A stretch of 64,000 nt of DNA, taken from a virus. The stretch covers positions 1 through 64,000 of IMG/VR virus record IMGVR_UViG_3300025425_000010; one strand, written 5' to 3'. The position numbers and the translations under genes are program-made. The notes below the pieces were generated by a model. The model saw only the letters and a list, made by a program, of their open reading frames with translations, did no database searches and was not told the origin of the DNA. This document shows, piece after piece, positions 964 to 63,778 of this stretch (the first letter of the stretch is position 1; each line of letters opens with the position of its first letter).

Positions 964-1135
964 GATATCCTATTGAATATTTATTCATGTATTTATTGAT
1001 TTTAATCTCAACCATATCAAATAGTTTATCATCTATATCACTATCCGGATATGGCATCCATGCTGGTATTATATATCCCTTGTTTATTAATTTCCAAAGA
1101 ACTTCATATTTCTTCGATGTGTCAAATCCTTTCAC
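929..1135 (-). CDS. Hypothetical protein
   Basis: ORF overlapping its neighbours in operon fashion. Confidence 0.6.
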   Translation of the reverse strand: MKGFDTSKKYEVLWKLINKGYIIPAWMPYPDSDIDDKLFDMVEIKINKYMNKYSIGYRGKEYEQSEQR

Positions 1136-1544
1136 CTATTATTCCTTTAATTTTTTGTGATCTACTATAACCTTTATAAAAAGATTTAAATTCATCAATA
1201 GACATATCTTTATATGGATTAAATCCTTTTATGTTTTCACATCTAATCATATAATTCCATTCCAAATCGATATCCTCTTCTTGTACACATATACATAGAG
1301 TTAGTGATGATAATGGTACATGGTAATCCACACCCCAGGATAATACAATAGGTAAACTATCTCTAGCTATTTCCTTAAATTCTTTAAAATCTACGACATT
1401 GAATATATGTGGAGACATATTTAAAACATGTTGGGTATCCATGAACGAGTAACCTATATTAACTGCAACAATCATATCATTTATTATATCAAAAAAAATC
1501 CGAAAGTCCTTTTGTGTGAGAAAAGTTCTTTCGGATTTAAACAT
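1122..1544 (-). CDS. Hypothetical protein with C-terminal RxxKIxxII motif
   Basis: Ends RSQKIKGIIGERI. Confidence 0.65.
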   Translation of the reverse strand: MFKSERTFLTQKDFRIFFDIINDMIVAVNIGYSFMDTQHVLNMSPHIFNVVDFKEFKEIARDSLPIVLSWGVDYHVPLSSLTLCICVQEEDIDLEWNYMIRCENIKGFNPYKDMSIDEFKSFYKGYSRSQKIKGIIGERI

Positions 1545-1590
1545 GTTTGAGAATTCACAAATTCTATAACACTAACACTTTCTTGTTTAA

Positions 1591-1769
1591 TGTGTGTCAG
1601 ACATTACCTGCGGTGTCACAGGGTGGTTTTTTACCCAAACCACATCCCTAAATGTGGAACTCTGGTTTCCTTCACTCCCGTTAGGGATGGAAATGATTAT
1701 CCAGAGTATTATTTTTTATTTCAAGGTCATTAGGTAAGACGGCTTTCACAGCTTCCGTTTTGACATACA
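1591..1769 (-). ncRNA. Candidate structured non-coding RNA of unknown family
   Basis: GC-enriched, ORF-free island directly downstream of a TATATTTG box (1770-1777). It has a closing stem and at least 5 internal hairpins or stems, folded by eye. Confidence 0.6.
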
Positions 1770-1785
1770 CAAATATACGGATAAA

Positions 1786-3729
1786 TTATTTAAGTTTTAC
1801 AAACATTTCATGTTTTGTTTTACCACAGTCCCAAATCCTATAATATCCAAGACCCGACATATGTTCTCTCTCCGTTATCTTTTGGTTGTGTATACCCATA
1901 TTAGATTTCTTATAGTTTTGTTTGTTTCTTCTAACACCACCAACAACATATTTATAATCCGGATTTGATTTATTAATTGTTTCAAATCCTAGTTTTTTGT
2001 AAAGATTACCAACAGACCAATCATTATCAGAATAACTTATTATTCGAGTTACATTATTATCTTTTATGAAATTGGTTAGTAGTTTAGATGCTCCACCAAC
2101 AACAGATATATTTATTTTATTACAAAATCTAGATAAATTCCACTCACTACCCGGTAATTTCTTACGACCTTCTAATTTATTAAAGGTCATTATAGATACG
2201 ATTTCACCCAAATAGATTAGTCCTACCTTTATATTACTCCTATCCATACCCTGAATATGATTCGTATTCATAAATTCAGTACAATTATCAATATACACAA
2301 TTTCACACTTCCTAGCATATATTTTATTTTTGGTTTTCCCAACGATGTTGTTTATTTGACTCTCAATTATTATTCGATTATTTACCCAATTGTCTTCCCA
2401 AATGTGTATTATACGAATTCCTCTATCATCAAAATATTTGGTCTTATTTAAATGATAATTTTTATCCTTATATTTCTCGGAATGCCAATACAATCCATTA
2501 AATTCAAATCCAATATTTAATCCCGGTAAGTAAATATCTATTTCCAAACCATCACTATAAGATTGTATAATCTCACCATCATAAATCGATGAGATATATT
2601 CCAATAATTCATTCTCGCGTATTGAATAAATACCATTTATTGGATTACAAACCGTACACAACGAAAGGTCACTGGAAGACCTACTTATATAATTACTAGA
2701 TTTAATTGAAAATGTATGACCTTTACCACATAAATAAATAGACTCTTTTACACTCCGGTCATAATTTATATAATTATCCGTTTGACAATTGTTGAAATTT
2801 AATTTTCTTATATTTTCAGATTGTGATACGAATTCAACACCATACTTTTCAATTATTGTATCTTTGGAACTAATTTTAAAATCAGGTGTTTTCATATAAG
2901 AATCCACACCATATTTTTTCAAACATGTTTGTTTTATTTTATCTTTAATTTCTTCGGATTGTGATACGAATTCAACACCATATTTTTCAATTATTCTATC
3001 TTTGGATTGAATTTTAAATTCAATCGTCTTCATATAAGAATCTACACCATATTTTTTCAAACATGTTTGTTTTATTTTATCATGTATATGAGTATAACCA
3101 ACACCATACCTATCTATTTTGGTTTGTTTTGATTTCTCTTTAATATCAGTAAATTTCATGGGGTGATCCACACCATACCTATACATAAATATCTCTTTAA
3201 TTACTTTCTTAATACTATCAGACTGGAATACATTTTCAACACCATATTTTTCAATTATTGATTGTTTAAGATTCTCCTGTACTATATTTGATTTCATAGC
3301 GTGGGTAAAACCATATTTTTCAAGACATGTTTTTTTTGACTTCTCTCGGAATTCATCCGTTTTCATATAATAATCTACACCATATTTTTCGAAATTTGTT
3401 TTTTTGTTTTTTTGTTTTATAGAATCAAGTTTAGAAGGACTATCCACACCATGTTTAATTATTGATAATTCTTTTTTTTTCATAGACCCACACACATTTG
3501 AACAAGCAAATTTCCCATTATGACTCACATTCCGGAAATATTCACAATAGGCTATCACTTTATTTGAATCACAATAATCACAATCAACATCAATAAACAC
3601 CCTTGATGCCTTCGGTAAATCCTCAACAGAGACATCAAAAAAGCCATTATCTAAATCATATCCTAGATTCAAATAATGGCTTTTTGTTTTATTATTAATT
3701 TTAACTTTTACACTTTTAGTATTCAACAT
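1786..3729 (-). CDS. Homing-endonuclease-like protein (Zn finger + KYG repeats + PD-(D/E)xK/Vsr-like nuclease + Mom/GNAT-like C-terminus), copy 1
   Basis: Motifs CDYC, repeated EKYGV, LEIDIYLP..IGFEFNGLYWHS, IHIWED, WNLSRFC, IISYSD, RIWDCG. Confidence 0.8.
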   Translation of the reverse strand: MLNTKSVKVKINNKTKSHYLNLGYDLDNGFFDVSVEDLPKASRVFIDVDCDYCDSNKVIAYCEYFRNVSHNGKFACSNVCGSMKKKELSIIKHGVDSPSKLDSIKQKNKKTNFEKYGVDYYMKTDEFREKSKKTCLEKYGFTHAMKSNIVQENLKQSIIEKYGVENVFQSDSIKKVIKEIFMYRYGVDHPMKFTDIKEKSKQTKIDRYGVGYTHIHDKIKQTCLKKYGVDSYMKTIEFKIQSKDRIIEKYGVEFVSQSEEIKDKIKQTCLKKYGVDSYMKTPDFKISSKDTIIEKYGVEFVSQSENIRKLNFNNCQTDNYINYDRSVKESIYLCGKGHTFSIKSSNYISRSSSDLSLCTVCNPINGIYSIRENELLEYISSIYDGEIIQSYSDGLEIDIYLPGLNIGFEFNGLYWHSEKYKDKNYHLNKTKYFDDRGIRIIHIWEDNWVNNRIIIESQINNIVGKTKNKIYARKCEIVYIDNCTEFMNTNHIQGMDRSNIKVGLIYLGEIVSIMTFNKLEGRKKLPGSEWNLSRFCNKINISVVGGASKLLTNFIKDNNVTRIISYSDNDWSVGNLYKKLGFETINKSNPDYKYVVGGVRRNKQNYKKSNMGIHNQKITEREHMSGLGYYRIWDCGKTKHEMFVKLK

Positions 3730-5780: not shown

Positions 5781-6677
5781 ATGGGAATAAAAAAAAAGAA
5801 TAGTAATATGAAAGTTAAAACTAAAAAGAACGCAATACCGGGAGCGTGGATTGTAGATCCGAAAGACCGTGGACGAAGACCTATCAAAAAAGGTAATGTT
5901 TATCTAAAAAACGGGGAAGAATTTGAAATCGAAATATTCAACCCACTCAAAACAAATATATTGGCTGATATAAGAATCAATGGTGATTCAATATCTGAAG
6001 GTGGTTTAATAATTAAACCTGGTCAAAGAGAGTATTTGGATTGTTTTATAAATGATGGACGTAAATTCAAATTCGAAACTTATACAGTAGAGAATTCGGA
6101 AGAGGCTAAAGAAGCCATCTCAGAAAATGGAATGATGGAAATTTTCTTCTATAAAGAAGATGTTCTTAGATTTAGTAATTGGAGAAATAGAATAAACACT
6201 ATACAACCAATTATAATCAGAGATAGAAATTGGTACACATATCAATCAATACCATTAGTACCGAATATTTGGTGTGGTAACCACTATTCAAATACTGGCG
6301 GGTATAGTGGTACACTAACAACAACCTTTGTGTCACCACAATCGTATGTTGCTCCTACCAATGTAGATGCATCAGTCAGTAGTTATAGTGCTCAATTGAG
6401 TAATGATATCGAAACTGGTAGAGTTGAAATGGGTGAGAAATCAAAACAAACTTTTCATGAGGTTGATATGGATTTTGAAGAATTACAAATACACTCAATT
6501 ATTTACAACTTGTTACCAGAATCTCAACAACCAACAGAGGTTAAGAAAATTAAGAAGACCAACAATAATGACGGTGTTCTCACACTCTTGACCGAACTGG
6601 CTGATATGAATAAAAAAGGTATATTAACCGAGAAAGAATTCACAGATAAGAAGAAAGAACTTCTATCCCGAATTTAA
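5781..6677 (+). CDS. Hypothetical protein with C-terminal SHOCT-like helix pair (start may be 5808)
   Basis: C-terminus LTELADMNKKGILTEKEFTDKKKELL fits the SHOCT pattern. Confidence 0.7.
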   Translation: MGIKKKNSNMKVKTKKNAIPGAWIVDPKDRGRRPIKKGNVYLKNGEEFEIEIFNPLKTNILADIRINGDSISEGGLIIKPGQREYLDCFINDGRKFKFETYTVENSEEAKEAISENGMMEIFFYKEDVLRFSNWRNRINTIQPIIIRDRNWYTYQSIPLVPNIWCGNHYSNTGGYSGTLTTTFVSPQSYVAPTNVDASVSSYSAQLSNDIETGRVEMGEKSKQTFHEVDMDFEELQIHSIIYNLLPESQQPTEVKKIKKTNNNDGVLTLLTELADMNKKGILTEKEFTDKKKELLSRI

Positions 6678-8817: not shown

Positions 8818-9139
8818 AGTATTTTATCATATATTTATAAAATGATAACTTCTCTTCTTTTTTAACAAGAGGTCTACTAAAATTACCATATATCACAGGG
8901 GAAACAATTTGGTCTTTAATAGATTCTAGTTTTGTTAATATATCCACCCAAATATCATCAAATGTAACTAAGTTCATATCAGCATCTCCCTGTATATTGA
9001 ATGATACTGGAATATCATTTATATAAACAACCATATACCGCTCAGCGCCAATACGAACTCGATTAGATATTCGGATTTCATCATTTATGAATATCTTTGA
9101 TAGATTTTCCACAATCTTATTTAAGTTTATATTATCCAT
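8807..9139 (-). CDS. Hypothetical protein
   Basis: ORF overlapping the clpP stop. Confidence 0.6.
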   Translation of the reverse strand: MDNINLNKIVENLSKIFINDEIRISNRVRIGAERYMVVYINDIPVSFNIQGDADMNLVTFDDIWVDILTKLESIKDQIVSPVIYGNFSRPLVKKEEKLSFYKYMIKYFDD

Positions 9140-9878
9140 ACTTGGCTAATTCTTTTGTGTGATACTCATCGAATCCCTCCAATAGAGCTGAGATACTATT
9201 ATCTTTCTTCTTATTAAGTCCAACGATTTCATCAATCAAACCGAATTCAAGAGCTTCATCAGAATTATACCATCTGTCTCTATCTGAGAATTCAAGTACT
9301 TCTTGGAAAGTCTTACCACTGTTCTGAGCCAATAGTTTGAATAGAATGTAGTTATACTTCTCAGCTTCTAATTGAGTTATACGAGTATCTTGTACCGGTC
9401 CTTGTGATCCATGACTCACCTGGTGTGTCATAACCTTCGAATAAATCAAAGATGACCTCTTACCCTTAGCACCAGAAGATAAGATTATAGAACCCATGGA
9501 TGCACACATACCGAGGTTCATAGTCGATACATCTGATTTGATGTAGTCCATAACATCTACGATACCCAATCCACACAGAACTGATCCACCCGGTGAATTA
9601 AGGTAAAGGTTAATGTCTTTCTTATTATCTGCTTGGTCGAGATAAAGTAATTGTGCTTGTACAACGTCAGACATTTGTTGATTAACAGCTCCTGACACCC
9701 AGAGAATACGATCTCTCATCAACCGTGAGAATATATCCATCTGTGTTACTTGCATCTGTCTTTCTTCAAGAATATAAGGTGTCATTGACCCCTCAATCGA
9801 ATCTCCAATAGATTCTAGTGTAGTTGTTGGAATGCCTACACTGGTAGCATATTTTTTAAAATCTTTTCCGTAATCCAT
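9132..9878 (-). CDS. clpP: ATP-dependent Clp protease proteolytic subunit
   Basis: DIFSRLMRDRI, YLNSPGGSV, CASMG (catalytic Ser), MTHQ (His), DRDRW, EALEFGLID. Confidence 0.95.
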   Translation of the reverse strand: MDYGKDFKKYATSVGIPTTTLESIGDSIEGSMTPYILEERQMQVTQMDIFSRLMRDRILWVSGAVNQQMSDVVQAQLLYLDQADNKKDINLYLNSPGGSVLCGLGIVDVMDYIKSDVSTMNLGMCASMGSIILSSGAKGKRSSLIYSKVMTHQVSHGSQGPVQDTRITQLEAEKYNYILFKLLAQNSGKTFQEVLEFSDRDRWYNSDEALEFGLIDEIVGLNKKKDNSISALLEGFDEYHTKELAKYG

Positions 9879-10910: not shown

Positions 10911-11255
10911 TTAGTCGAGTATGTCCTTCAGTTGCATATCTCTAACTTTCTGTCTTATTACCTCATCACCCAAACCATCTTCTATTAATTTCAAAACTAT
11001 GTTAAGTTTGTCTTTAACTATTTTATAACGATCCGAATTAATAATTTGTGACTCAATAGAATTACCCCTCCAAAGAACTTCCATTCGAGTTTCCTGAGCA
11101 CCATCAACCGGAAAAATTATAGAATTAATATTCTTCATATAGGCATCCATAAATCCTTTTATTTTTTCCTCGGCTTTAAGACGACCAAGACCATTCACAT
11201 TTATGTATACGACAAATATTGGTTTTTCTAAATTTAACTCTGTTTCTTCATTCAT
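10911..11255 (-). CDS. Hypothetical protein with C-terminal RxxxLxxIL motif
   Basis: Ends VRDMQLKDILD. Confidence 0.7.
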   Translation of the reverse strand: MNEETELNLEKPIFVVYINVNGLGRLKAEEKIKGFMDAYMKNINSIIFPVDGAQETRMEVLWRGNSIESQIINSDRYKIVKDKLNIVLKLIEDGLGDEVIRQKVRDMQLKDILD

Positions 11256-11469
11256 TTAATATCTCAATTAATTTTTTATTCCTATCACATCTATCAAATA
11301 GTATTTTACCGAATAACGTTAGTGATGCATTTGCCTTACTACCAATTATTATACCCTTATCGTGTAGTTTATCAGCAATGTCAGGCCACTGTTCTTTCAT
11401 TTCCATGAAGTTCAAAGTACCATCTATAGATTTTCTAAAAATTTTTATATGACGGAACGTAAAACACAC
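11248..11469 (-). CDS. Small hypothetical protein with C-terminal motif; 5' end abuts MITE C
   Basis: Ends DRNKKLIEILNE. The listed start lies inside the MITE, so the true start is uncertain. Confidence 0.5.
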   Translation of the reverse strand: MCFTFRHIKIFRKSIDGTLNFMEMKEQWPDIADKLHDKGIIIGSKANASLTLFGKILFDRCDRNKKLIEILNE

Positions 11470-12733: not shown

Positions 12734-13657
12734 TTATGTAATATACCAACCAACTTTGGCATCTTGATTTATTCTGAAATAGTCGGCTAGTAACGGAATC
12801 TCCTCACTATCAATTTTATCATTAAATTTCTCACAATCACTACTTATTATAACAGCTTTACTCCCATCACCAAGTATAACCATCTTATCGAATGACCTAT
12901 CACTAACCATGTAAGAGTATAATATCTTAACTATTTCCTTTCTAAGTTTGTGAAAGTCTAAATAGGCAAAATCAAATAGGTGTTCTACATCGTGTCTATT
13001 ATCATCAAGAGCTCTTAAATAATCACCAATGAATAATTTTCGATCTTCCAATGAAAGTTTCATAAGTTCTTCTTGCCAGTGTTCTTGGTGTCGGGCCTTT
13101 TCTAACTCAACGGCTGGGATATTTACTTTATGTGCTATGTTTGGTTTGAGCCCATATTGTAAAACCAGTTTATTAGTTCGTCTTAGGAATTCGGTACCAG
13201 TTACTTTACCATTTATCCTGACCTCTTGGCCTTTTATCTCAACGTTTTCACCATCTATAAGTAAATCGCCTCGTGAGGCTTTATATATCAGTGGTGATAT
13301 GAAGATGAACATTAACTCACCCTCACCAGAAGCTGAGTTAGGTGTTCCTAATCCAACACTCCTCAATCTCCAAAGTGATTTAGTAAAATCTATCCACTTG
13401 GGTGTTATGTAATCATCTATATTCCCGCCTTCTTTGAAAAATGATATATCGAAAACTTTATTGTTTTCTACATCAGATATGAAGTTTTTTATTTGAAATA
13501 GTGTATCTTCTGATACTTCGCCATAAAACCTTACTATGGATCCAATTAAGGAATCTATTATACTATCTTTCTTCTTTTCATGTGAAACTTCTTTTAATAT
13601 CGACATATTGTAACAGTGTTCGAGAAGAGTATTTTCAAGTTCTTTTACTATATTCAT
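12734..13657 (-). CDS. Putative PD-(D/E)xK endonuclease
   Basis: SGEGE...RGDLLIDGENVEIKG, an E..D..ExK pattern. Confidence 0.55.
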   Translation of the reverse strand: MNIVKELENTLLEHCYNMSILKEVSHEKKKDSIIDSLIGSIVRFYGEVSEDTLFQIKNFISDVENNKVFDISFFKEGGNIDDYITPKWIDFTKSLWRLRSVGLGTPNSASGEGELMFIFISPLIYKASRGDLLIDGENVEIKGQEVRINGKVTGTEFLRRTNKLVLQYGLKPNIAHKVNIPAVELEKARHQEHWQEELMKLSLEDRKLFIGDYLRALDDNRHDVEHLFDFAYLDFHKLRKEIVKILYSYMVSDRSFDKMVILGDGSKAVIISSDCEKFNDKIDSEEIPLLADYFRINQDAKVGWYIT

Positions 13658-14003
13658 ATAAATCTCCGAGTGTAGGCTTAGTTTCTTTTTCTACTCCCAA
13701 CACTCTTTCTATCTGTTTTTTTCGAAAAGTTTGCTTATCGTATATAGAATCCATATCAATCTCTGATAACCTAGGGTGTCTTGGGTTCCGCAATCGTCTT
13801 CCTCCCCATTTATCATTTTCGTATGATGGACTAATATTTTTATCAACATATTTATATCTAATTTCACGACAAAGTGAATCGTTTTCATCATCTAAAGACC
13901 AAGCCGCATAATCATAAGGACCATCACGATAACCATCATATATATTACCGTATTCGTCTATTCCCTCGTCAATAATTTCACGGATTTTCACTTTATACTT
14001 CAT
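13635..14003 (-). CDS. Hypothetical protein with near-C-terminal RxxxIxxVL motif
   Basis: RKKQIERVLG; TATATTTG box at 14012-14019. Confidence 0.65.
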   Translation of the reverse strand: MKYKVKIREIIDEGIDEYGNIYDGYRDGPYDYAAWSLDDENDSLCREIRYKYVDKNISPSYENDKWGGRRLRNPRHPRLSEIDMDSIYDKQTFRKKQIERVLGVEKETKPTLGDLYEYSKRT

Positions 14004-16566: not shown

Positions 16567-16821
16567 TTAGTGATCTAAGTATATCATATACTTCTCCTCA
16601 TCATTCAAATTTATCTGTAATGTTTCTTCCTTGTGTCCAGTAGTGAATCTAATAACTACGAGGTTCATGATACCAACATCTTTATCGGTTTCTCCTAGGA
16701 TATCATCCAATAGAACACTTCGTACATCTGTCTTACTCATTTTAGGACCCACTTCAATAGTTAATTCTATATCAATATTAATCCTCTTATCTACGAATGT
16801 GTGTATAAGGTTTGTGTACAT
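16567..16821 (-). CDS. Hypothetical protein
   Basis: Likely start MYTNLIH; internal VRSVLLDDIL motif. Confidence 0.55.
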   Translation of the reverse strand: MYTNLIHTFVDKRINIDIELTIEVGPKMSKTDVRSVLLDDILGETDKDVGIMNLVVIRFTTGHKEETLQINLNDEEKYMIYLDH

Positions 16822-16955
16822 AGACTCGTTACGTCTCTGTGTCTTATATAGAAATAGTGAGAATATAACTAATCGTTTAATGTAGTTATGTCTAATTAGT
16901 TGAAAATTTAAATTCATATTACATATATTAAATTAATGATCCGTACATTACCAAG

Positions 16956-17312
16956 ATGGGTATGTGTATAATAGATATAATTAATAAAGTAATATACACA
17001 CTCTTTGTGGCTGTGGGTGGTAATTTTTATTTGAATTGGCTGCTGGTAACTAACCCAACATCAAAAAATCCACTTATTAAGTGGTGTTGGGGTGTTATGT
17101 GTTGTAACAGCACATGGAATGTTAGAGATAGATATATTGATGCTTATGTTTATGGTGTAATACACATAATAGGATGTGTTTTTATGATTTATTCTGGTGG
17201 GTTTTGGACAATTTGTAATTTCGTTATAAATGTCTATCCAATACTAGTTCAGTTATATATAGGTTTCAGATGTTATCGAATAATGCAGTATAAGAAATTA
17301 CGATCTAAGTAA
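16956..17312 (+). CDS. Putative membrane protein
   Basis: Several hydrophobic segments. Confidence 0.55.
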   Translation: MGMCIIDIINKVIYTLFVAVGGNFYLNWLLVTNPTSKNPLIKWCWGVMCCNSTWNVRDRYIDAYVYGVIHIIGCVFMIYSGGFWTICNFVINVYPILVQLYIGFRCYRIMQYKKLRSK

Positions 17313-17543
17313 TTTCTTCAACCTGAGTTCACGTATCTCTTCCTTATTCATCAATTTCTTATAAGTTTCTGAACAAACAGGACATGTCGATTTCTTTCGG
17401 TGTCTATTGGATCGATTTCGATAAATGTCTGATACATCCCTAAGACATTCTGGACAGAACTTATTATCGGGATTCGTTAATATTGGTAGTGTTGTCCAAG
17501 TATAATTGATACCAAAGTGCCTTTCGAAAATTTTATAATCCAT
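17298..17543 (-). CDS. Zn-ribbon protein with C-terminal motif
   Basis: CPEC...CPVC; ends IRELRLKKLLRS. Confidence 0.7.
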   Translation of the reverse strand: MDYKIFERHFGINYTWTTLPILTNPDNKFCPECLRDVSDIYRNRSNRHRKKSTCPVCSETYKKLMNKEEIRELRLKKLLRS

Positions 17544-17545
17544 TT

Positions 17546-17743
17546 TTATTTCTTTAATATTGTTTTTAGTTTTAAATCTCTTACTTCGGATTTTATTAAT
17601 GTGTCTCCTTTGTTAAAATATTTCCGACAGTCCAGACACTGGTAATCCGAAACCATAGAGTATTGATTAAATGACACCACCAAACTATCACGGTAACAAT
17701 GAGGACAATATCTATCTTCTGTACTTAGTGTTTTTGTAATCAT
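17546..17743 (-). CDS. Zn-ribbon protein with C-terminal motif
   Basis: CPHC...CLDC; ends VRDLKLKTILKK. Confidence 0.7.
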   Translation of the reverse strand: MITKTLSTEDRYCPHCYRDSLVVSFNQYSMVSDYQCLDCRKYFNKGDTLIKSEVRDLKLKTILKK

Positions 17744-40061: not shown

Positions 40062-40187
40062 ATCTTTCTTATTATGTTTTATTGATTTGTTTAACAAAGA
40101 TAGTTAATATTACCAACTATCATAATTTATATACAACTATTACGGAGAATTTATATTTAATATATATTAAAAAGTAATTATGTTAAT

Positions 40188-50724: not shown

Positions 50725-52555
50725 AGACAGATATAAAAAATTAGATGAAATATCACATCTACTATTAAGACCATCCATGTATATTGGATCAATTAAAACA
50801 CAAACTTTAAAGAAATATGTTTTGGATGATGGTAAAATGATTCAAAAAGAAATTACCTATAGTCCTGGATTTTTAAAATTATTTGATGAAATTATAATGA
50901 ACTCAATCGATGAGAGTAAGAGAATTCGAACCAAACTGAATATTATAAAAATAAATATAGATTTGGATACTAATAATATATCTATATATGATAATGGTGG
51001 AATGCCTGTCGTAAAACACAAGGAATATAAGGAATGGATACCTGAACTTGTATTTTCTTCATTTAGGGCTGGATCCAACTTTAATGAAGATGAATCAAGA
51101 ACTTGGGCAGGAACTAACGGTGTTGGATCAGTTATTACTAATGTATTTTCCAAAAAATTCAAAATAACAACATGTGATGGTAAGAATAAATTCTCACAAA
51201 CATTCTCAGATAACATGGGAAAGAGGTCAAAACCATCAGTATCCAAGTCCAAAAAGGGACACACTGAAATATCATATATTACAGATTTTGAAAAATTCGG
51301 AATGAAGAAGATTGACCAATATCATTTACTTATTATACAAAAAAGGATAATTGATATTGCTGGATGTAATCCCAAACTCAAAATATATTTCAATGGTGAT
51401 CTATTTCCAATAAAAACCTTTGAGGATTATATAAAGTTATATAATAGTGATGTGTTATTTGAGGAGAATAAACAGAAAACATGGTCTATCGGGTTGTGTG
51501 TATCGGGAGAAGGATTTCAACAAATATCATTCGTCAATTCCATTGAAACGTATGATGGTGGGTCACATGTGGATTATGTATTGAACCAGATATTATCAAA
51601 GGTTCGAGAACATTTCAAGAAAAAATACAAAGTCGATGTAAAGCCATCTGAAATAAAAAATCATCTAATGTTTTTTCTTGATGCGGAGGTTATTAATCCA
51701 AGTTTTAATTCACAAACAAAAGAGAAATTAATTACAGAGTCTAAAGATTTTGGAACAGAATATATAGTTAGTGATAAGTTAATTAAATCAATACTTGATT
51801 CAGAGATAGTTGAATCAATACTAGACTGGATATCACGTAAGAAAATAGCTGATGAAAATAAATTAGCTAGGAATTTGAATAAGAGTCTTCTTAAGAAGAA
51901 AGTAGATAAACTCATCGATGCTAAGGGTAAAACTCGTTGGAAATGTAGTCTTGGAATTTTTGAGGGGGATTCAGCCACCTCGGCATTTCGTAAATATAGA
52001 ACACCCGAAACGATGGGTGCTTTCGCCTTGAAGGGTAAGTTTATGAATGTTACTGACATATCGAGTGATAAATTCGTTAATAATGCCGAGGTAGTCAATT
52101 TGATGGGTGCTATTGGGTTGAAATTGGGTAAAGAGCCAGAACTTAAAAATCTTAGGTATGGTAGAATATTGATATATTCTGATGCTGATGTTGATGGTAG
52201 TTCGATTACAGCACTACTTATTAACTTTTTTTACCGTTACTGGCCCAAACTATTTGACATGAATATGATATATAAAGTAGAAACTCCCATAGTAGTTGCT
52301 AGTAAGAAAGGTAGTAAAACGAAATCTTTATTCTACACACAAGATGAATACAAATCTTGGTTGAAGAAGGTTAATATTTCGAACTGGGAGGTTAAGTATA
52401 AGAAGGGTCTGGCTGCATTGGTTGATGATGAGTATAATGAAATTATAAACAAACCTCGATTAGTCAGAATAGATTCAACTAAGAAGTCAGAGGATTATTT
52501 GGACATTTGGTTCGGTAAAGACTCTGACCTTAGAAAAAAAGAAATGTTGAAATAA
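50711..52555 (+). CDS. Type IIA topoisomerase subunit B (T4 gp39+60/GyrB-like)
   Basis: RPSMYIGS, EIIMNSIDE, DNGG, GTNGVG, EGDSA, LKGK, DADVDG, YKKGL. Confidence 0.95.
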   Translation: MKKIEDRYKKLDEISHLLLRPSMYIGSIKTQTLKKYVLDDGKMIQKEITYSPGFLKLFDEIIMNSIDESKRIRTKLNIIKINIDLDTNNISIYDNGGMPVVKHKEYKEWIPELVFSSFRAGSNFNEDESRTWAGTNGVGSVITNVFSKKFKITTCDGKNKFSQTFSDNMGKRSKPSVSKSKKGHTEISYITDFEKFGMKKIDQYHLLIIQKRIIDIAGCNPKLKIYFNGDLFPIKTFEDYIKLYNSDVLFEENKQKTWSIGLCVSGEGFQQISFVNSIETYDGGSHVDYVLNQILSKVREHFKKKYKVDVKPSEIKNHLMFFLDAEVINPSFNSQTKEKLITESKDFGTEYIVSDKLIKSILDSEIVESILDWISRKKIADENKLARNLNKSLLKKKVDKLIDAKGKTRWKCSLGIFEGDSATSAFRKYRTPETMGAFALKGKFMNVTDISSDKFVNNAEVVNLMGAIGLKLGKEPELKNLRYGRILIYSDADVDGSSITALLINFFYRYWPKLFDMNMIYKVETPIVVASKKGSKTKSLFYTQDEYKSWLKKVNISNWEVKYKKGLAALVDDEYNEIINKPRLVRIDSTKKSEDYLDIWFGKDSDLRKKEMLK

Positions 52556-53004
52556 TGTCATTACTACACCATGGCGGTTCATTTTTTTCTCCGCTAGTAC
52601 ATAATAATCAATATGAGTTTGACCTTATCGATACGGATAATGATATTTTTATATCTAGTATGTGGCCGAATAAGATAAAGTATGTGTCTAGAAAAAAAAG
52701 AGACCGAATAAAACTATCATACCTCATAAAAGAGAAAGATTTACAAAAATCACCAATATCAACTCTATTTAAGAATATATTTTCTGGATTATTAAGCATA
52801 TGTGATGATAAAGGATTAGTAATTCATCATGAATTATTATACATGGAGTTCCATAGTTCCGAAGTGAATATGTTTGGTGATCATATTGGTATTCTGACCT
52901 TTGATGTAATCTTCGAAATAACGAAAACTGAATTAATTGATTTAGATTATAAACTTAATCGTGAAAAACTCATAAGAAAGTATAAATTAGATAAGTTAAT
53001 TTGA
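52555..53004 (+). CDS. Hypothetical protein with C-terminal motif
   Basis: Ends IRKYKLDKLI. Confidence 0.7.
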   Translation: MSLLHHGGSFFSPLVHNNQYEFDLIDTDNDIFISSMWPNKIKYVSRKKRDRIKLSYLIKEKDLQKSPISTLFKNIFSGLLSICDDKGLVIHHELLYMEFHSSEVNMFGDHIGILTFDVIFEITKTELIDLDYKLNREKLIRKYKLDKLI

Positions 53005-53014: not shown

Positions 53015-53335
53015 ATGATCAGAGACCGACAGTGGAGAAGACATATTAAAGAGATGTCACAAAGGCGTAATTATACGGTATATAGACGCTTTTATAACTA
53101 TTATGATATTAATGGTGTTAGGCGAGAACACCCTCATTGGTTTGAGTGTATAGGTGATAAATCCTTTCATGGTAGTCCACACAGTAGGTATAATGTTAAA
53201 TATTCACCAAATACACTTGGGAAATATAGAGATTATAAAAAAAAGAATGGTGGGTTTTCTACTGGGTTGAGGGAGAAAGATAAAATTATGTATAAGAATA
53301 TTATAGAAGACATACTTTATGAAATGGGAAGATAG
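53015..53335 (+). CDS. Basic hypothetical protein
   Basis: ORF. Confidence 0.65.
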   Translation: MIRDRQWRRHIKEMSQRRNYTVYRRFYNYYDINGVRREHPHWFECIGDKSFHGSPHSRYNVKYSPNTLGKYRDYKKKNGGFSTGLREKDKIMYKNIIEDILYEMGR

Positions 53336-53864
53336 ATATGTAGATGGACCTGATTACACCATTAAAGACGATGTTGTTTTTGTTCTTAAGAATTTCGTAC
53401 AGATAACCTTGTTCCGTAAAATTGATGATAAACGTGTTCAGGTTTCTTTTGATAGAAGAGTAGTAAATTTTATTAAGAGAGAGATTTTACACCTTATTAA
53501 ACACGATGTAGAATTTGAATTTATATCACCTATGATGTTTGATCCTAAGTTTATGAGAAGAGATTATGATATTATATACAGGGAAAATTTGAGAAATATG
53601 TTAGAGAACTATCGATTCAAAACATTCTTTCTATTTTTCAAAAAGCATAATATTAATTTTATGTCAAAATTAGTAATTTATGTAAATGAAACAGACACTC
53701 ATCAAATATTTGATGAGGAATTTGATAAGGTCAACAAGTCAGTACAAAAAGCCCATCAGGATTGGTTTTATAATGGTCCTGTTACCTATTTGGATTCGGA
53801 AGAAATCCGTGATTTTTTTTCATCGTTTAAACGGAATATGAAATTAACACAGATACTTTTATGA
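53319..53864 (+). CDS. Hypothetical protein with C-terminal motif
   Basis: Ends KRNMKLTQILL. Confidence 0.7.
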   Translation: MKWEDRYVDGPDYTIKDDVVFVLKNFVQITLFRKIDDKRVQVSFDRRVVNFIKREILHLIKHDVEFEFISPMMFDPKFMRRDYDIIYRENLRNMLENYRFKTFFLFFKKHNINFMSKLVIYVNETDTHQIFDEEFDKVNKSVQKAHQDWFYNGPVTYLDSEEIRDFFSSFKRNMKLTQILL

Positions 53865-54793
53865 AATGGAATACGAATTTAGTTGAGTTATGGAATGATG
53901 ATATTCGGTTGCGAAGAGATGGAAAACTTCGTGATTTACTCGATAAGGGTAGTCTTGAATTACCCAAGGGTAGTCCATACATCGACCAAACCACTTTAAG
54001 ATCAACAGATAATTTCGAATATAATGAGTTGGAAGTTGATGAGATGCTTAAAGTATTTAGTAATTTCGATAGATTGATTGAGAACCATATAACCATAGAA
54101 AATTCTAAAATTAAACTAAGGGGATATCAGAAGGATATGCTTGATAAATTACACTTATCTTCGTTTGAAATTGTATGTCATTCTCGACAACTTGGTATGT
54201 CTATGATGTTGAGGTTATATATATTACGTTGTGTGTGTGTGGGAAAAGATGTTGTGGTTATATGTAATAATAATTTTGTGAGAGTTGATGATATAAAGAA
54301 ATTTAAAGAATTATTAGAAAGCCTACCATATTACATGCAACCGGCTTTGAAATCTCGTAGTAAGAATAATTTCATATTTTATAAATCGAAGGTTGTTTTT
54401 ACGAACAGTACCCTTGGGCATGAGGAAACGACTGTTATGATATTTTCAGATGCTGCTTTCAATACTAAATTTCAACTACAATTTGAGAAAACCGTGACAA
54501 TTAGAAGGGTTTCTATTAAAAAAGATTTACAAACAATGGTATTTTCCGGATCGAACATAGGTTCGTATTTCAATAAGTTTTTCCTTTTTGAAAAAAATAA
54601 TCCGTGGAATACTAGCTATTCAAATTTCAATAGAACAATTTTAACACATAACGTAGTTACTCGTAAAGAAAATTGGGAAGATAATCTACGTGGAATCATT
54701 GGTGATAAACAGTTTCTCATTCAATATTCTTGTTGTATGGATGAAAAAATATTAAATAGATACGATGTGCTTAGAAATATCTTAAACAAATGA
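53861..54793 (+). CDS. Degenerate terminase-large-subunit ATPase-like protein
   Basis: LRGYQKDML and SRQLGMS resemble the T4 gp17 adenine-binding and Walker A motifs. SDAAF sits at Walker B. No nuclease domain. Confidence 0.65.
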   Translation: MKWNTNLVELWNDDIRLRRDGKLRDLLDKGSLELPKGSPYIDQTTLRSTDNFEYNELEVDEMLKVFSNFDRLIENHITIENSKIKLRGYQKDMLDKLHLSSFEIVCHSRQLGMSMMLRLYILRCVCVGKDVVVICNNNFVRVDDIKKFKELLESLPYYMQPALKSRSKNNFIFYKSKVVFTNSTLGHEETTVMIFSDAAFNTKFQLQFEKTVTIRRVSIKKDLQTMVFSGSNIGSYFNKFFLFEKNNPWNTSYSNFNRTILTHNVVTRKENWEDNLRGIIGDKQFLIQYSCCMDEKILNRYDVLRNILNK

Positions 54794-54950: not shown

Positions 54951-55928
54951 ATGTTACTTAATTTAATATTAGATGGAAACTACATTTTATCAAAACTAGT
55001 GTTCACATTACACAAAAATAACCTATTATATGGAGCTCTTGACCAAGCGTTGGAGAATTCATTTAAAAACTACCGTAAATGGTATCCATTTCATCAAATC
55101 TACTTGGTTAGTGATTCAAAAGAGAAGTCATGGAGAAAACAACTTAATAACAAATATAAAGATACTCGTAAGAAAGATTCCGCCATCGATTGGGGGTTTG
55201 TATATGATACATATAATGCCTTTAAAGAAAGGCGTAATTTGATAAAAGTACTTGAATATCCTAGAGTTGAGGGTGATGATTGGATTGCTTTGATTTGTGA
55301 AAAAACTAACCTAAGAGGAGAATCAAATCTTATTGTAACAAATGACCATGATATAAAACAATTATTAAGATTTAATTTGAATGAGGGTTGGATGAATTTT
55401 ATGTCAAATGAAATGTATAATAATAAGAATATTTTCATGCCTAAGAACTACAAGATGTTGTTATCACAAGTCCGTGATAAGCCAAATGAAGATATATTCA
55501 ATATGAATGATGATTCTACATTTTTAAAATTATGTGAAGATTTATCAAAGAAATACAAAACAAACGAAGTTGATTGGACTCAATCACTAGTCACTAAGAT
55601 AATTTCTGGTGATGTATCTGATAATATAAAATCGGTGTATGTTTCTAAAACCTCCACTGGGAAGGTGAGAGGTATCGGTGCAACTGGTGCTCAGACTATA
55701 TTTGGTCAGTATATTAGAGAGTTTGGTGAAATAGATATGGAAGACCCAGACTTGGCTGAGAACATAGGTGACATAATCTGTGAGAAGAAGAAGATATCAA
55801 AAACTGAGATTGTTAATATATCAAAAAGAGTTGAAGAGAACAGGAAAATGGTTCAGTTGAGAACTGAATTCTTCCCAGTTGATATTAGAGATGTGTTAGA
55901 AGAAAAATGGACCAATGTAGATGCTTAA
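54951..55928 (+). CDS. 5'-3' exonuclease / T4 RNase H-like
   Basis: LILDGN, VSDSK..SWRK..YK..R, VEGDD, NDHD..QL, GDVSDNI. Confidence 0.85.
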   Translation: MLLNLILDGNYILSKLVFTLHKNNLLYGALDQALENSFKNYRKWYPFHQIYLVSDSKEKSWRKQLNNKYKDTRKKDSAIDWGFVYDTYNAFKERRNLIKVLEYPRVEGDDWIALICEKTNLRGESNLIVTNDHDIKQLLRFNLNEGWMNFMSNEMYNNKNIFMPKNYKMLLSQVRDKPNEDIFNMNDDSTFLKLCEDLSKKYKTNEVDWTQSLVTKIISGDVSDNIKSVYVSKTSTGKVRGIGATGAQTIFGQYIREFGEIDMEDPDLAENIGDIICEKKKISKTEIVNISKRVEENRKMVQLRTEFFPVDIRDVLEEKWTNVDA

Positions 55929-56247
55929 CATTGATAGCTGGGAACAATTTGTCACACAATTGTATGGACTCACCAATACTAAATTGATTAAATTTACAGC
56001 ATATTATATAAGTTCATCAAGTGGTTTTACTAAAGGTAATATGATTCTACTACATAGTAAATTTGATATGATTAGAAAGACTCCTATACCACTAGATGGT
56101 GAGGTGTTGGAGAGTTCTGAGTTGTTAGAATGGGATTCTTTTATAACATATGACCAACTTTTTGATATTTTTCCAATAGAATTCCTTGAAAAGTATGATA
56201 TGATGATGGTACGTAACTGGAAGATTAAAAAACTTATTGATGAGTAA
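55921..56247 (+). CDS. Hypothetical protein with C-terminal motif
   Basis: Ends VRNWKIKKLIDE. Confidence 0.7.
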   Translation: MLNIDSWEQFVTQLYGLTNTKLIKFTAYYISSSSGFTKGNMILLHSKFDMIRKTPIPLDGEVLESSELLEWDSFITYDQLFDIFPIEFLEKYDMMMVRNWKIKKLIDE

Positions 56248-57590: not shown

Positions 57591-58348
57591 TGTTGGTATC
57601 TATTAATAAAGTATATGGTAATTGTAAGGTATTATCACCTGATGGTGAACTTATGTTTCTGTGTCGTGAGAAAAAGGTTAATTGGTATTTGAAAAGGGAA
57701 TTGGCTTATACGGTTGATGATAATCCTATCACAATACAATTGAATTTTGAGCCGAATGGTAAAGGTTACCATGGTAGTGATTGGGGTTTGTCCGAAATGC
57801 ATAACAGATGTGTTAATTGTGGTGAAGGTGATAAAATTAATAGACATCATGTGGTGCCTTATTGCTATCGTAAATTCTTCACAACTAAATTAAAGTCACA
57901 TAATTCACATGATGTATTACTGATGTGCCCGGATTGCCATGATGCGTATGAGAGAAAGGCTGATGTTCTAAAATTGAAGTTATCTAAGATATATGATTCT
58001 CCTTTATCGGGATCGAATATTTTTGATAGAGAGAGTTCAAAGATGAAAAGATTGGTTAGTTGTATCGTAAATCACTCTAATGATATTCCTGATGAAAAAC
58101 TAAAAGAGATAAAACAAAATATACTAAATAACTACGGTTGGAAACGACTTACAAATAAGAGAATTGATTGGATTAATTCAATAAAGACTCATCGGAATTT
58201 AAAGACTCATGGTGAGATGGTGTGTGAGAAGATAGATGATTATCAAGTATTTATAAAAATGTGGAGAACTCATTTTGTGAATAATAATACTTGTGAGTAT
58301 TTGCCAGAGAATTGGTCAATAGATTATGAACATATTGTACAGAAATGA
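57587..58348 (+). CDS. HNH-like protein resembling the C-terminal domain of eukaryotic EXD2
   Basis: YGNC..LSPDG...C..KK..WYL, CV.CG...RHHVVP..YRK.F....KSHNSHDVLLMC..CH, WR.HF....LP..WS.D. Confidence 0.75.
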   Translation: MMLVSINKVYGNCKVLSPDGELMFLCREKKVNWYLKRELAYTVDDNPITIQLNFEPNGKGYHGSDWGLSEMHNRCVNCGEGDKINRHHVVPYCYRKFFTTKLKSHNSHDVLLMCPDCHDAYERKADVLKLKLSKIYDSPLSGSNIFDRESSKMKRLVSCIVNHSNDIPDEKLKEIKQNILNNYGWKRLTNKRIDWINSIKTHRNLKTHGEMVCEKIDDYQVFIKMWRTHFVNNNTCEYLPENWSIDYEHIVQK

Positions 58349-58881
58349 AAAAAAAAGAAAAAAAAGAAAAATTGTTAGTATCGTCTCTCGATAGTTATAG
58401 AGAGAAACGAATACATAGAGTTGATAGAAATTGTTTAAGTTCGTTGAAGATACTGTTTTATAATTCGAAACTTGATAGTAATACATCGATTGCTTGTCTT
58501 CACCCAAAGTACTGGTGGGATAGTATAATCGATGTTTTTTATGATAACGTTACTTATGTCCAGTGTGACTTCGATGTGGCTATGGAAAAATTAGTACCAG
58601 ATACTAAATCATCTGAAGTATATTATCGACAGGTTACTACTAATTATGTCTGTGAAAATATTGATTTCGATACAATCGATGAGATGTGTCTATGGTTCAA
58701 AAAGAACAAATTTAACAACATATCTTTATATCGGATGGTTAAAAAAGTTGATATGCAGATATTGAAAGAATGGTATAGTGTAACGTATACATTCATAGTA
58801 GATAAACAAGAATCTAGAAATAATAAGATAGAACACATTATGGATAATGGTGAAGCTGATTATGAAAATTTACCATTTTAA
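58345..58881 (+). CDS. Hypothetical protein with near-C-terminal motif
   Basis: SRNNKIEHIM; ends in LPF. Confidence 0.7.
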   Translation: MKKKEKKEKLLVSSLDSYREKRIHRVDRNCLSSLKILFYNSKLDSNTSIACLHPKYWWDSIIDVFYDNVTYVQCDFDVAMEKLVPDTKSSEVYYRQVTTNYVCENIDFDTIDEMCLWFKKNKFNNISLYRMVKKVDMQILKEWYSVTYTFIVDKQESRNNKIEHIMDNGEADYENLPF

Positions 58882-59187: not shown

Positions 59188-59703
59188 TTAAATAATCTTG
59201 TCAAGTTTATTGTTTCTGCTTGATTTAAGGTCTATACATCCATCCCACTCATTAACATTTTCTATTTTACTCATTAATATTTGTTTATCATTAACATAGT
59301 CTTTTATTTTCTCACTTATTAGTTTTTGGAAATCCGTATCGTCTGTATATTTTGATGAGTTGCTAATAACTTTAGACGTAAATAATCCTATTTTAATGAT
59401 ACTAAACGTATATTTTGTGTAGACCATCCATAAATCATCACACGAATCGCCTTTTATTTTCTTAAATCTATTTTTGAGAATTATGGCTTGTAAAAACAGG
59501 AAAGGTGTTCCGTAACCTTTGGGTCCAGCAGGTAAGATGGCAATACCAGTTAATATGAGAAATATTACAAGATATGATATAATACCTACAATTAACTGAG
59601 ATGCTAATGGTATTTCTAGTTGAGCCATTAGATAACTAATCCATATTATGTGTGTTAAATAGTATAGTAGGGATGTGAGCATATGTATGTTTAAATCTTT
59701 CAT
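59188..59703 (-). CDS. Membrane protein with C-terminal motif
   Basis: N-terminal transmembrane helices; ends SRNNKLDKII. Confidence 0.7.
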   Translation of the reverse strand: MKDLNIHMLTSLLYYLTHIIWISYLMAQLEIPLASQLIVGIISYLVIFLILTGIAILPAGPKGYGTPFLFLQAIILKNRFKKIKGDSCDDLWMVYTKYTFSIIKIGLFTSKVISNSSKYTDDTDFQKLISEKIKDYVNDKQILMSKIENVNEWDGCIDLKSSRNNKLDKII

Positions 59704-61142: not shown

Positions 61143-61260
61143 AATTAAGATAAAGTCCTTATATTTGTATATATTATATAAATGAAGTCAAATTTAAACA
61201 TATCTAATCATACGTATAACTTTTACTTTATAGAAATTGTATGTACTAAATAACCAATAA

Positions 61261-62184: not shown

Positions 62185-62283
62185 ATGATATATATTGAAT
62201 TTCAAATACATATTTTTGATAAGTGTTATTAATAACCCATCTTCTTTATATTTTAAAAAATTTGGTATTGTGTGTGAAATACA

Positions 62284-62291
62284 TATCTTTG
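62284..62291 (+). promoter_or_regulatory. Bacteroidota-type promoter (TTTG...TATCTTTG) giving a near-leaderless transcript
   Basis: Box ends 4 nt before the RNA ligase ATG; upstream TTTG at 62261. Confidence 0.7.
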
Positions 62292-62295
62292 TAGT

Positions 62296-63444
62296 ATGTT
62301 TAGATTGAGAATTCCTACATATGATGATGCTAAAAATATAGTCAGTGAAAAGGGTAATACTATTTTTTACGAAATTAAACACAAGATAAATGGTGTTAAT
62401 TTATCAGTATTTAATTATAGATATCCATCATACACTGATTTTTTAGATAATGATGTGGATTTCCGAGAAATGAGGGGGCTTACCTTTGTTTTTAATGATG
62501 ATGGGTCGTATAAAAGGTACGTATTGTTGAAAAAGTTCTGGAACATAAATCAAGTCCCGGAGTCAATGTATGATATGGTTAAGGATTATAAACTACTATC
62601 ATCATATAATAAAGAGGATGGTTCTGTTATATCTTTTATAAAAATAAATGAGGAGATTATACCAAAGTCAAAAATGGGATTTGATAATGATCAAGTAATA
62701 AAATCAGGTATTGTGTATAATTCGAATAGAAATATCAAACAATTTGTGGAATATTGCTTCGATAATGATATTGTATCTATCTGGGAATATGTTTCGTTTA
62801 AAAATAAAATAGTACTTGATTATGATAAAGATAACTTGATATTATTGAGATTGAGGGATAATAAAACCGGTGATTATATAGATATAGAGGAATATCGAAA
62901 TATGGGGTTTGATGTCGCTGAACAAGACAATATCACTATTGAAGATGCTATGTTAACATTTCCAAACATTGTTGATAAAGAGGGTACAGTTTTTACTTTA
63001 CAATCTCCTAATGGTGAAAAGGTAATGGTGAAGAAGAAAACTGATTGGTATTTACTAAGGCATAATTTATTAACAAATGATATTAACAAAGAGAACTATG
63101 TTATACACTCTATTTTAGACAACACCATTGATGATATAATATCTCAGTTAGAAACAACCGATATTACTAAAAGAGAATTTATAGAAGATATACAAAATAT
63201 TGTTAATTTCAAAATATCTATGACGGTGCGTGAAGTGAAAGAATTTCTCAAAAAATACGAGGGTGATAAGAAGTCGTTTTCCTTAGAATATGGAAAGCAT
63301 CCATTATTTCACTTTGCTATTGGTTATGTTAATGGTATCGACCTTTTTGAGATGGTAACACTTTTCTTTTCTAAGAAGACAAGTAAATTACACAATGCTC
63401 AGAAATGGTTAGAAAAATCAAGAGATGAATATGAGAAAAGCTAA
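62296..63444 (+). CDS. RNA ligase 1 (T4 RnlA-like)
   Basis: FNY, EMRGLTF, KFWNIN, KEDGS (motif I), WEY, EG.V, KKK..WY. Confidence 0.88.
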   Translation: MFRLRIPTYDDAKNIVSEKGNTIFYEIKHKINGVNLSVFNYRYPSYTDFLDNDVDFREMRGLTFVFNDDGSYKRYVLLKKFWNINQVPESMYDMVKDYKLLSSYNKEDGSVISFIKINEEIIPKSKMGFDNDQVIKSGIVYNSNRNIKQFVEYCFDNDIVSIWEYVSFKNKIVLDYDKDNLILLRLRDNKTGDYIDIEEYRNMGFDVAEQDNITIEDAMLTFPNIVDKEGTVFTLQSPNGEKVMVKKKTDWYLLRHNLLTNDINKENYVIHSILDNTIDDIISQLETTDITKREFIEDIQNIVNFKISMTVREVKEFLKKYEGDKKSFSLEYGKHPLFHFAIGYVNGIDLFEMVTLFFSKKTSKLHNAQKWLEKSRDEYEKS

Positions 63445-63778
63445 TTTCAATTTGATAACTTCCGAAACCTGTAAAGATTGTAGGAATTTCATTTGGTATA
63501 AATCCAATCGGGATTTCAATGTACCATATAATCATTTTGAGGAAGGTAGAATTAACAGTGGGATAGTTGAAATAGTTTGTGGTGATGTGTTTGGTATGGC
63601 TCAAATGGATTTCCAAATATACTCATCTGTTGTGGAATGTTCAGAAGTGATGTTATTCAATGATAAGTTATCACCTGTATTTTTATCGAGGGATCTTCTT
63701 GAATTAAATAGTAGTCATTTTACAGATATTACTAAAGTGTATCTACGTAACCATAAGTTAGACCAGTTGTTGAGGTAA
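63425..63778 (+). CDS. Hypothetical protein with C-terminal motif
   Basis: Ends LRNHKLDQLLR. Confidence 0.7.
   Translation: MNMRKANFNLITSETCKDCRNFIWYKSNRDFNVPYNHFEEGRINSGIVEIVCGDVFGMAQMDFQIYSSVVECSEVMLFNDKLSPVFLSRDLLELNSSHFTDITKVYLRNHKLDQLLR

Follow-up and report, generated by a model that had tools for sequence, protein, structure and literature searches.

C-terminal degrons and adaptor tails, among them ssrA, MuA and the XB peptide of SspB, are well established, the C-terminal cargo peptides of encapsulins bind the HK97-fold shell, and the CbbQO machinery acts on the large subunit of Rubisco via the C-terminus of that subunit. In phages, a shared address peptide has to our knowledge so far been known only for a few head proteins. 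The subject of the present analysis is a short C-terminal motif, in its basic form R-x-x-K-[I/L]-x-x-[I/L]-[I/L], which recurs on many unrelated proteins encoded in a 64,000-nucleotide stretch of viral DNA (hereafter the window), positions 1 to 64,000 of the IMG/VR record IMGVR_UViG_3300025425_000010. The motif is a genuine tag, selected as a peptide, portable from protein to protein, kept in orthologues, variable between phage lineages and carried by a non-late class of genes; our literature searches found no description of it. The same stretch of DNA encodes a MoxR ATPase and a metallopeptidase-vWA protein, a pair described for jumbo phages of group 2.2 (Iyer et al., 2021, PMC7824862).

The window comprises the first 64 kb of one viral contig of 73,747 bp, which is about 30% G+C and K/I/L-rich. 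In its topoisomerase the contig shares 63–65% identity with two uncultured huge phages, LR745206 (635 kb) and LR756502 (642 kb), 45% with LR756504 and 38% with LR756501, which identifies it as part of a huge phage belonging to this group. A simple call of open reading frames (ORFs) yielded 139 on the whole 73.7-kb contig, missing the one at 11248-11469, and the nearest complete relative, LR745206, was taken in full (926 ORFs). All 19 C-terminal copies of the motif listed in the initial annotation exist in the sequence, 17 of them truly terminal (0–5 residues before the stop) and two subterminal, at 12 and 20 residues. The strict pattern R..K[LI]..[LIVM][LIVM], at most six residues from the C-terminus, is present in 17 of the 139 contig ORFs and a loose pattern in 22 (counts that include carriers beyond the window and omit 11248-11469), where whole-protein shuffles predict 0.035 and 0.075, and shuffles of the last 20 residues, which keep local composition, 0.12 and 0.22, with a maximum of 3. 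Neither the reversed motif nor the motif at an N-terminal position had a single match among these ORFs, and the loosest pattern matched 4 of 207 shadow ORFs, a false-positive rate of about 2%. The terminal enrichment over composition-matched shuffles, proposed at the outset as a check, thus holds: it exceeds 100-fold and concerns the C-terminus only. The synonymous codon variation claimed for the motif is likewise found at every conserved residue (AGA, AGG, CGT, CGA and CGG for Arg; TTA, TTG, CTA, CTG, CTT and CTC for Leu), and selection therefore acts on the peptide and not on the DNA.

The anatomy of the tag emerges from 139 aligned tails of this contig and LR745206, in which the Arg at position 0 was demanded by the search pattern. 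Of the tails, 80% have Asp, Glu or Asn at position 1 (about 60% Asp or Glu) and 78% have Lys at position 3, while Ile, Leu or Val occupies positions 4 and 7, and Leu, Ile or Phe position 8; upstream of the Arg, position –1 is mostly hydrophobic and position –4 is Lys in 37%. Most tails have one residue between the tag and the stop, the overall range being 0 to 8 residues, mostly polar. On a helical wheel of 100 degrees per residue, R0, K3, I4, I7 and L8 share one face, which would give the tag the look of a groove-docking helix.

In LR745206 the strict motif occurs in 78 ORFs, with a sharp peak 0–2 residues from the end, and a looser pattern in 115. An unbiased search of the remaining C-termini revealed a second ending, R-D-x-K-L-x-x-L-G-I, with 25 such ORFs in the final count, and a third, minor ending, -I-F, is found on very small ORFs, which brings the total to 140 tagged ORFs out of 926; allowing for the false positives of the loosest pattern (about 2%), the real carriers number about 125–140. 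The claim that unrelated proteins have the C-terminal motif in common is borne out by the fact that the 140 carriers, once their last 16 residues are trimmed, form 139 BLAST clusters (E < 1e-3). Only one of the 76 carriers of at least 100 residues has a Pfam match (E <= 0.001), as compared with 32 Pfam families, in an estimated 20 or so proteins including DHFR, RNase H, peptide deformylase and NusG, among 76 random length-matched non-carriers. Similarly, 3 of the 24 contig carriers have a homologue in LR745206 (E < 1e-5), as against 47 of 115 other ORFs (p = 0.009), and all three homologues retain the tag. In charge, isoelectric point and hydropathy, the carrier bodies are indistinguishable from other small ORFs. 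The carriers are thus small, mutually unrelated, orphan and fast-evolving. Conservation of the motif among orthologues in related phages, the other check set by the initial annotation, was upheld: a database search with the carrier at 19254-19874 returned its own record and eight orthologues of 50–63% identity, all nine of which end in the tag, with the -IL and -GI endings swapping among the members of the family. Since the bodies are unrelated, the tags are kept in homologues and the two endings interchange, the tag is portable and outlasts the bodies that bear it, and its variants are equivalent.

A further property of the carriers is the expression class to which they belong. In LR745206 the motif TAATATATA lies 26–37 nucleotides upstream of the portal and major capsid genes, a position that identifies it as the late promoter. 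It is found before 6 of 115 carriers vs. 214 of 811 other ORFs (p = 3e-8) and, when only ORFs with their own upstream spacer are considered, before 1 of 32 carriers vs. 99 of 315 others. The carriers are arranged in tightly packed operons (median gap –1 nucleotide), and many overlap the start of the next gene; TGA stops close 33% of the tagged and 16% of the other ORFs of the LR745206 genome, an excess that probably reflects ATGA stop-start overlaps in the packed operons. As had been noticed at first inspection, the tag and an N-terminal virion-type tag (K-x-[FY]-x-E) barely overlap, the latter being present on none of the 24 contig carriers and on 1 of the 115 LR745206 carriers. As the late motif is scarce before them and the virion-type tag almost absent, the carriers form a non-late class.

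Other huge phages use different dialects of the tag. In LR756504 it reads R-K-x-[KR]-I-x-x-L, and the same form is carried by 86 of the 596 ORFs of G002, one of five IMG/VR contigs (G001 to G005) chosen by MoxR similarity, at least four tagged ORFs being common to G002 and LR756504. LR756501 and G005 share K-R-T-x-L-I-D-x-x-L, in the same register. In G003 (348 kb), 56 of 540 ORFs have E-[A/G/S]-x-K-M-G-L-[L/Y/I] separated from the stop by exactly one residue, and internal copies number only three; the tagged genes form long runs of small genes (e.g., 214797-281822; loci L125-L143). No such tag was detected in 42-kb samples of Lak-A2 and of Chryseobacterium phage MA9V-1, from which these two phages were judged. 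Tagging of the C-terminus of at least a tenth of the proteome is thus a habit of several huge-phage lineages. Scoring the tag from 20 kb around the MoxR gene in 80 IMG/VR loci was misleading, and no conclusion was drawn from the resulting tree: G002 and G003 looked tag-free near MoxR, yet have 86 and 56 tags genome-wide. In the LR756501 lineage, G005 included, a number of ORFs without relation to each other end in an additional tag of acidic character, (E/L)-D-P-Y-G-E-E-x-W-(D/E) (LR756501, locus L015, 2903-3475, 19404-19919 and 30829-31626; locus L106, 11198-11593, 18605-18949 and 20822-21127), and one phage may therefore run two address labels. The situation in G004 provides a contrast to a portable tag, in that 15 paralogues of 150–300 residues (e.g., 89200-95961 and 141500-152520; loci L112-L124) have a conserved C-terminus of about 25 residues, ..K-K-F-T-E-E-E-V-R-x-V-I-D-V-K-G-x-V-Y-V, as in an ordinary multigene family.

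About one protein in six of the contig is tagged. Seventeen of the 24 carriers lie in the window, the other seven being located beyond it. On the minus strand the window carriers are the ORFs 1122-1544 (140 residues; RSQKIKGII, 4 residues before the stop), 10911-11255 (114 residues; RDMQLKDIL, 1 residue before the stop; the LR745206 homologue is tagged too) and 11248-11469 (73 residues; RNKKLIEIL, 2 residues before the stop), followed by three Zn-ribbon paralogues at 17298-17543 (81 residues; RELRLKKLL), 17546-17743 (65 residues; RDLKLKTIL) and 17740-17955 (71 residues; REFKLKELL), and by 18979-19257 (92 residues; RNKKLEKLL), 19254-19874 (206 residues; RDVKLNSIL) and 19861-20091 (76 residues; RNKRLHELL). 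Further along the same strand are the largest carrier, 42547-44637 (696 residues; RNIKLDNIL), which matches neither Pfam nor PHROG and whose 731-residue LR745206 orthologue is tagged too, as well as 44679-45023 (114 residues; RQIKLSKVL), 45361-45825 (154 residues; RKIKLLILL) and 59188-59703 (171 residues; RNNKLDKII, which abuts the stop). The plus strand carries 52555-53004 (149 residues; RKYKLDKLI, abutting the stop), 53319-53864 (181 residues; RNMKLTQIL, with a tagged homologue in LR745206), 55921-56247 (108 residues; RNWKIKKLI) and 63425-63778 (117 residues; RNHKLDQLL). The subterminal copies in 640-963(–) (RGPKLEYLL, 11 residues before the end), 13635-14003(–) (RKKQIERVL, 20 residues) and 58345-58881(+) (RNNKIEHIM, 12 residues) are doubtful members. 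Among the identities first proposed for the carriers, the "kinase-like" protein 19254-19874 is in fact a riboflavin-kinase-like beta-barrel (Pfam E 5e-7) followed by a Cys-rich region and the tag, and the supposed membrane protein 45361-45825 has no obvious transmembrane segment. The tag-like copies reported at the N-terminus of 53861-54793(+) (RDGKLRDLL, residues 19–27) and inside 16567-16917(–) are present in the sequence, the latter being RSVLLDDIL at residues ~66–74; a comparable RDIKLRDII occupies residues 24–32 of the DUF7487 paralogue at 40188-41870(+).

The reading that we favour, with a probability of roughly 60%, takes the motif for a short linear tag that is portable, serves for docking and addresses small, fast-evolving, non-late phage proteins without known domains to one common reader. 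The tag would be an amphipathic helix of three turns, (K-x-x)-hydrophobic-R-[D/E/N]-x-K-[I/L]-x-x-[I/L]-[L/I/F], or ending in -L-G-I, with 0–6 polar residues before the stop; its conserved face (R0, K3, I/L4, I/L7, L8) would plug into a groove of the reader, and all copies would be served in this way, many different bodies being brought to, or handled by, one machine. Because the dialects differ between lineages, the reader is most likely phage-encoded and evolving with the tag, rather than a conserved host hub. Several points weigh against such a docking tag. The docking itself is deduced from the anatomy of the tag; a spacing of 0–8 residues to the C-terminus fits groove docking but leaves the need for a terminal position unexplained; the terminal helix that AlphaFold2 places at residues 188–205 of the 206-residue carrier 19254-19874 is predicted at low confidence (pLDDT, the predicted local distance difference test, of 43–49); and G004, 246 kb long and 92% complete, has both the MoxR and the vWA genes but no portable tag, so that the system is not universal among kin. 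A docking or sorting helix served by one putative hub, as envisaged in the initial annotation, is the best available reading.

The leading, if unproven, candidate for the reader is the MoxR/vWA pair. The ATPase, of 375 residues, is encoded at 26686-27813(–). Its AlphaFold2 model (pLDDT 93.7) finds NorQ (E 9e-9, template modelling (TM) score 0.63–0.66 over the target) and CbbQ2 as best Foldseek matches, the fold similarity to NorQ and CbbQ as a whole corresponding to a TM score of 0.6–0.66 over the target, and the sequence contains the motifs G-x-x-x-x-G-K-S and h-h-h-F-E-E, while its Pfam matches remain below the family cut-offs. The protein is a MoxR-class AAA+ ATPase with a core of the NorQ/CbbQ/RavA type and with both Walker A and Walker B, to which an extra helical C-terminal domain of 110 residues, found only in viral relatives, is added. 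Its proposed partner, at 38613-40097(–) (482 residues in the record protein, which starts from the second Met), combines an HExxH zincin domain (PF13203, E 9e-15) with a vWA domain (PF09967, E 1.6e-6) whose metal ion-dependent adhesion site (MIDAS; DxSxS) is intact, and between the two, at residues ~176–218, two DnaJ-type zinc fingers (CxxCxGxG) flank a Gly/Gln-rich linker. H-E-D-F-H, D-T-S-G-S and the zinc fingers are all invariant in 52 homologues.

That this pair reads the tag and remodels or processes the clients, as NorQ-NorD and CbbQ-CbbO do theirs, is a tentative suggestion that we consider less likely than not. Both genes are inside the window, the ATPase joins a NorQ/CbbQ-like fold to a virus-specific helical domain, and the HExxH, zinc-finger and DxSxS elements are all kept in its partner. 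The host-type promoter consensus TAnnTTTG is found before the vWA gene of the contig and before each gene of the pair in LR745206 (where the MoxR orthologue has TATATTTG), an imperfect version, ATATTTG, lies 5' of the MoxR gene of the contig, and none of these genes has the late motif, which places them in the same non-late class as the carriers. Among five phages chosen by topoisomerase similarity, the three that are tagged have a vWA homologue and the two untagged ones, judged from 42-kb samples, do not; G003 and G005 contain the pair, each with its own dialect. In LR745206 a run of ten genes, at least eight of them tagged, ends directly upstream of the vWA gene, its immediate neighbour being the 731-residue orthologue of the 696-residue carrier. 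The large carrier and the vWA gene are neighbours in LR745206 and approximately so in the window, but not in LR756504 or LR756501. Against the pair as reader, moreover, G004 possesses both genes and lacks a portable tag, the co-occurrence of pair and tag is confounded by common ancestry and by the preselection of G001 to G005 for MoxR similarity, and Asp or Glu at position 1 in only about 60% of the tails is a poor fit to coordination of the MIDAS by that residue. The sole published proposal for the pair is a role in virion assembly (PMC7824862). Three-chain complex predictions for the vWA protein, the MoxR ATPase and the 65-residue Zn-ribbon carrier (alignments of 52, 67 and 3 rows, respectively) scored 0.62, 0.49 and 0.41 in separate runs, with 0.00 and 0.00 in partner-swap controls and 0.44 in a control with the vWA protein replaced, so that the specificity mark was failed and the result is unusable for or against binding. 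In the window, the DUF7487 copy 40188-41870 lies between the vWA gene and the 696-residue carrier and looks like an inserted mobile gene, since the two flanking genes adjoin in LR745206.

The initial annotation had also thought of the phage ClpP system, and a degron is an alternative use of a C-terminal peptide: early or middle accessory proteins would be cleared by a phage Clp machine (an N-domain-less ClpC-like unfoldase with ClpP), directly or via an adaptor. The position of the tag on short-lived-looking, non-late orphans, together with its absence from recognisable enzymes, would suit such a role, and a ClpP-family protease of 248 residues (PF00574, E 5e-55) is encoded in the window at 9132-9878(–); LR745206 has two ClpP paralogues and a 701-residue ClpC-like ATPase of the double-ring type, which contains a UVR motif but lacks a Clp_N domain. 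The latter is encoded at 423224-425329 (L018 256-2361), its UVR being the M-domain motif, and one of the ClpP paralogues, at 123556-124221, is directly followed by a tagged ORF of 210 residues. However, the complete LR756501 uses a dialect of the tag and has no ClpP match, while Lak-A2, with two ClpP genes, showed no tag in its 42-kb sample; the proposed link to ClpP is thus unsupported by the phyletic pattern, with which ClpP as a universal reader does not agree. The ClpP-like genes also match PHROGs of phage head-maturation proteases, as does 9132-9878 itself, and may serve the capsid. Degrons recognised by an unfoldase pore differ from the tag, with its helical periodicity, conserved Arg and variable spacing to the carboxylate. 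The tag has no LAA-like ending at a free carboxylate, as ssrA-type tags do, and ARAGORN found no transfer-messenger RNA in the window or LR745206 for comparison. The -L-G-I ending as a docking loop of the ClpX/ClpA I-G-F/I-G-L type was considered and not pressed, because -IL and -GI swap among orthologues and a helix cap is equally possible. On this evidence a degron is unlikely.

Binding of the tags to one another, or to a tagged scaffold (the 696-residue carrier, for instance), might instead gather the class or oligomerise each protein, as has been proposed for SHOCT and similar short C-terminal domains. In favour of this, the helix is amphipathic and its charges are mixed, one of the tagged proteins is very large and is conserved, and the non-carrier ORF 5781-6677 ends in a weak match to SHOCT (E 0.004, short of the Pfam cut-off). 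We nevertheless regard self-association as distinctly improbable, for 9–13 residues are short for stable association, no carrier has SHOCT or another Pfam family at its C-terminus (SHOCT, PF09851, matched none of 10 window carriers at E <= 1 and none of 76 LR745206 carriers at E <= 0.001), and the spacing from the hydrophobic residue to Leu-Leu is one residue off what we take to be the SHOCT consensus. A signal for virion or capsid targeting, comparable with the capsid targeting sequence (CTS) of T4 or the encapsulin cargo-loading peptides, would have in the latter a C-terminal precedent, and huge capsids hold many internal proteins; yet the carriers avoid the promoter of the portal and capsid genes, a separate set bears the N-terminal virion-type tag with almost no overlap, and 12–15% of all genes would make an implausibly long cargo list, all of which renders this reading very unlikely. 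Finally, the motif could be without function, a product of chance in K/L/I-rich, AT-biased proteins, a DNA element at gene ends or the common C-terminal domain of one diverged paralogue family. The composition of the genome (30% G+C, with much K, I and L in its proteins), the frequent overlap of carriers with the next start and the TGA frequency of 33% vs. 16% lend themselves to such a view, which is contradicted by the 17–22 copies observed against 0.04–0.2 in composition-keeping shuffles, by the variation of codons at all conserved positions and by bodies that cluster apart without detectable similarity; the tag persists while the bodies diverge beyond recognition, and a true paralogue family, that of G004, shows at least 25 conserved residues instead. 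The no-function reading was accordingly rejected, and there is hardly any chance that it is right.

Besides the ClpP-family protease, the MoxR-class ATPase and the metallopeptidase-vWA protein, the window encodes a Dam methylase, an RNase H-like nuclease, an RNA ligase and five DUF7487 paralogues. A type II topoisomerase is also encoded, with both of its subunits, and the gene of the A subunit, 46861-48630(–), contains an intein (Pfam Intein_splicing and PT-HINT, residues ~132–220). The DUF7487 paralogues, of 560–647 residues, are located at 1786-3729(–), 34666-36555(–), 36667-38553(+), 40188-41870(+) and 48686-50512(+) and have a common C-terminus resembling G-Y-Y-R-I-W-D-C-G-K. Matches to the Bacteroidota-type promoter TAnnTTTG 5' of some genes would fit a Bacteroidota host. 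In LR745206, ARAGORN identified more than 50 tRNA genes in three arrays at ~342–421 kb, two of the genes being odd, with 4-base or 2-base anticodon calls.

If the docking tag and the candidate pair are taken together, huge phages would possess an addressing code, a lineage-specific C-terminal helix on a tenth to a sixth of the proteome (the non-late accessory proteins that evolve fast), with one coevolving reader, most likely the MoxR ATPase with the metallopeptidase-vWA protein, which recruits, processes or retires the class together; this whole scheme is speculative and, as it stands, rather improbable. Should it be true, it would amount to a new principle for phage biology. With one reader serving at least 100 unrelated orphans, the largest block of dark matter in the genomes of huge phages could be approached experimentally through the tag as a single handle: the tag peptide could be used to fish out the reader, the tag predicts which unknown genes form one functional programme, and the dialects of the lineages would let tag and reader be paired by co-variation. 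As a small portable label, it could then also serve to direct cargo to the reader machine.

Each of the known systems resembles the phage tag in some respects and departs from it in others. As regards NorQ-NorD and CbbQ-CbbO, the window encodes a pair of this kind and the phage ATPase folds like NorQ and CbbQ, but the phage pair is without a known client, and one relative, G004, has the pair and no tag. The tails of ssrA, MuA and SspB are, like the phage tag, short portable C-terminal peptides read by one machine, and the phage clade encodes ClpP and a ClpC-like unfoldase; the sequences, however, bear no resemblance to each other, and the phage tag would be helical, with a conserved Arg and 0–8 mostly polar residues after it. 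In T4, the CTS of IPI-III and Alt is a short terminal peptide that brings unrelated phage proteins to one destination, although it is N-terminal, limited to a few late proteins and cleaved by the prohead protease, whereas the phage tag is C-terminal, marks 12–17% of ORFs and avoids late genes, a separate N-terminal tag marking the late set. Encapsulin cargo peptides, of about 10 residues, likewise attach unrelated cargo by its C-terminus to one reader, which is in their case an HK97-fold shell; since the phage carriers are not late genes, a capsid is an unlikely reader for them. Clamp-binding tails (the PIP box, Q-x-x-[LIM]-x-x-[FY]-[FY], and those recognised by gp45 of T4 and RB69) share with the tag the C-terminal position, a polar residue followed by hydrophobic ones at +3, +6 and +7, and many clients for one hub; the spacing is compatible, but the phage tag lacks the aromatic pair and has Arg and Lys instead of Gln, and its more than 100 putative clients would far exceed those of any known clamp. 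The PRANC/F-box-like module of poxvirus ankyrin proteins is a domain of about 40 residues that engages host Skp1 in eukaryotic cells and has no homology to the 9–13-residue helix proposed here, and yet, with variable bodies plugged through one C-terminal module into one machine, it is the closest analogy in logic.

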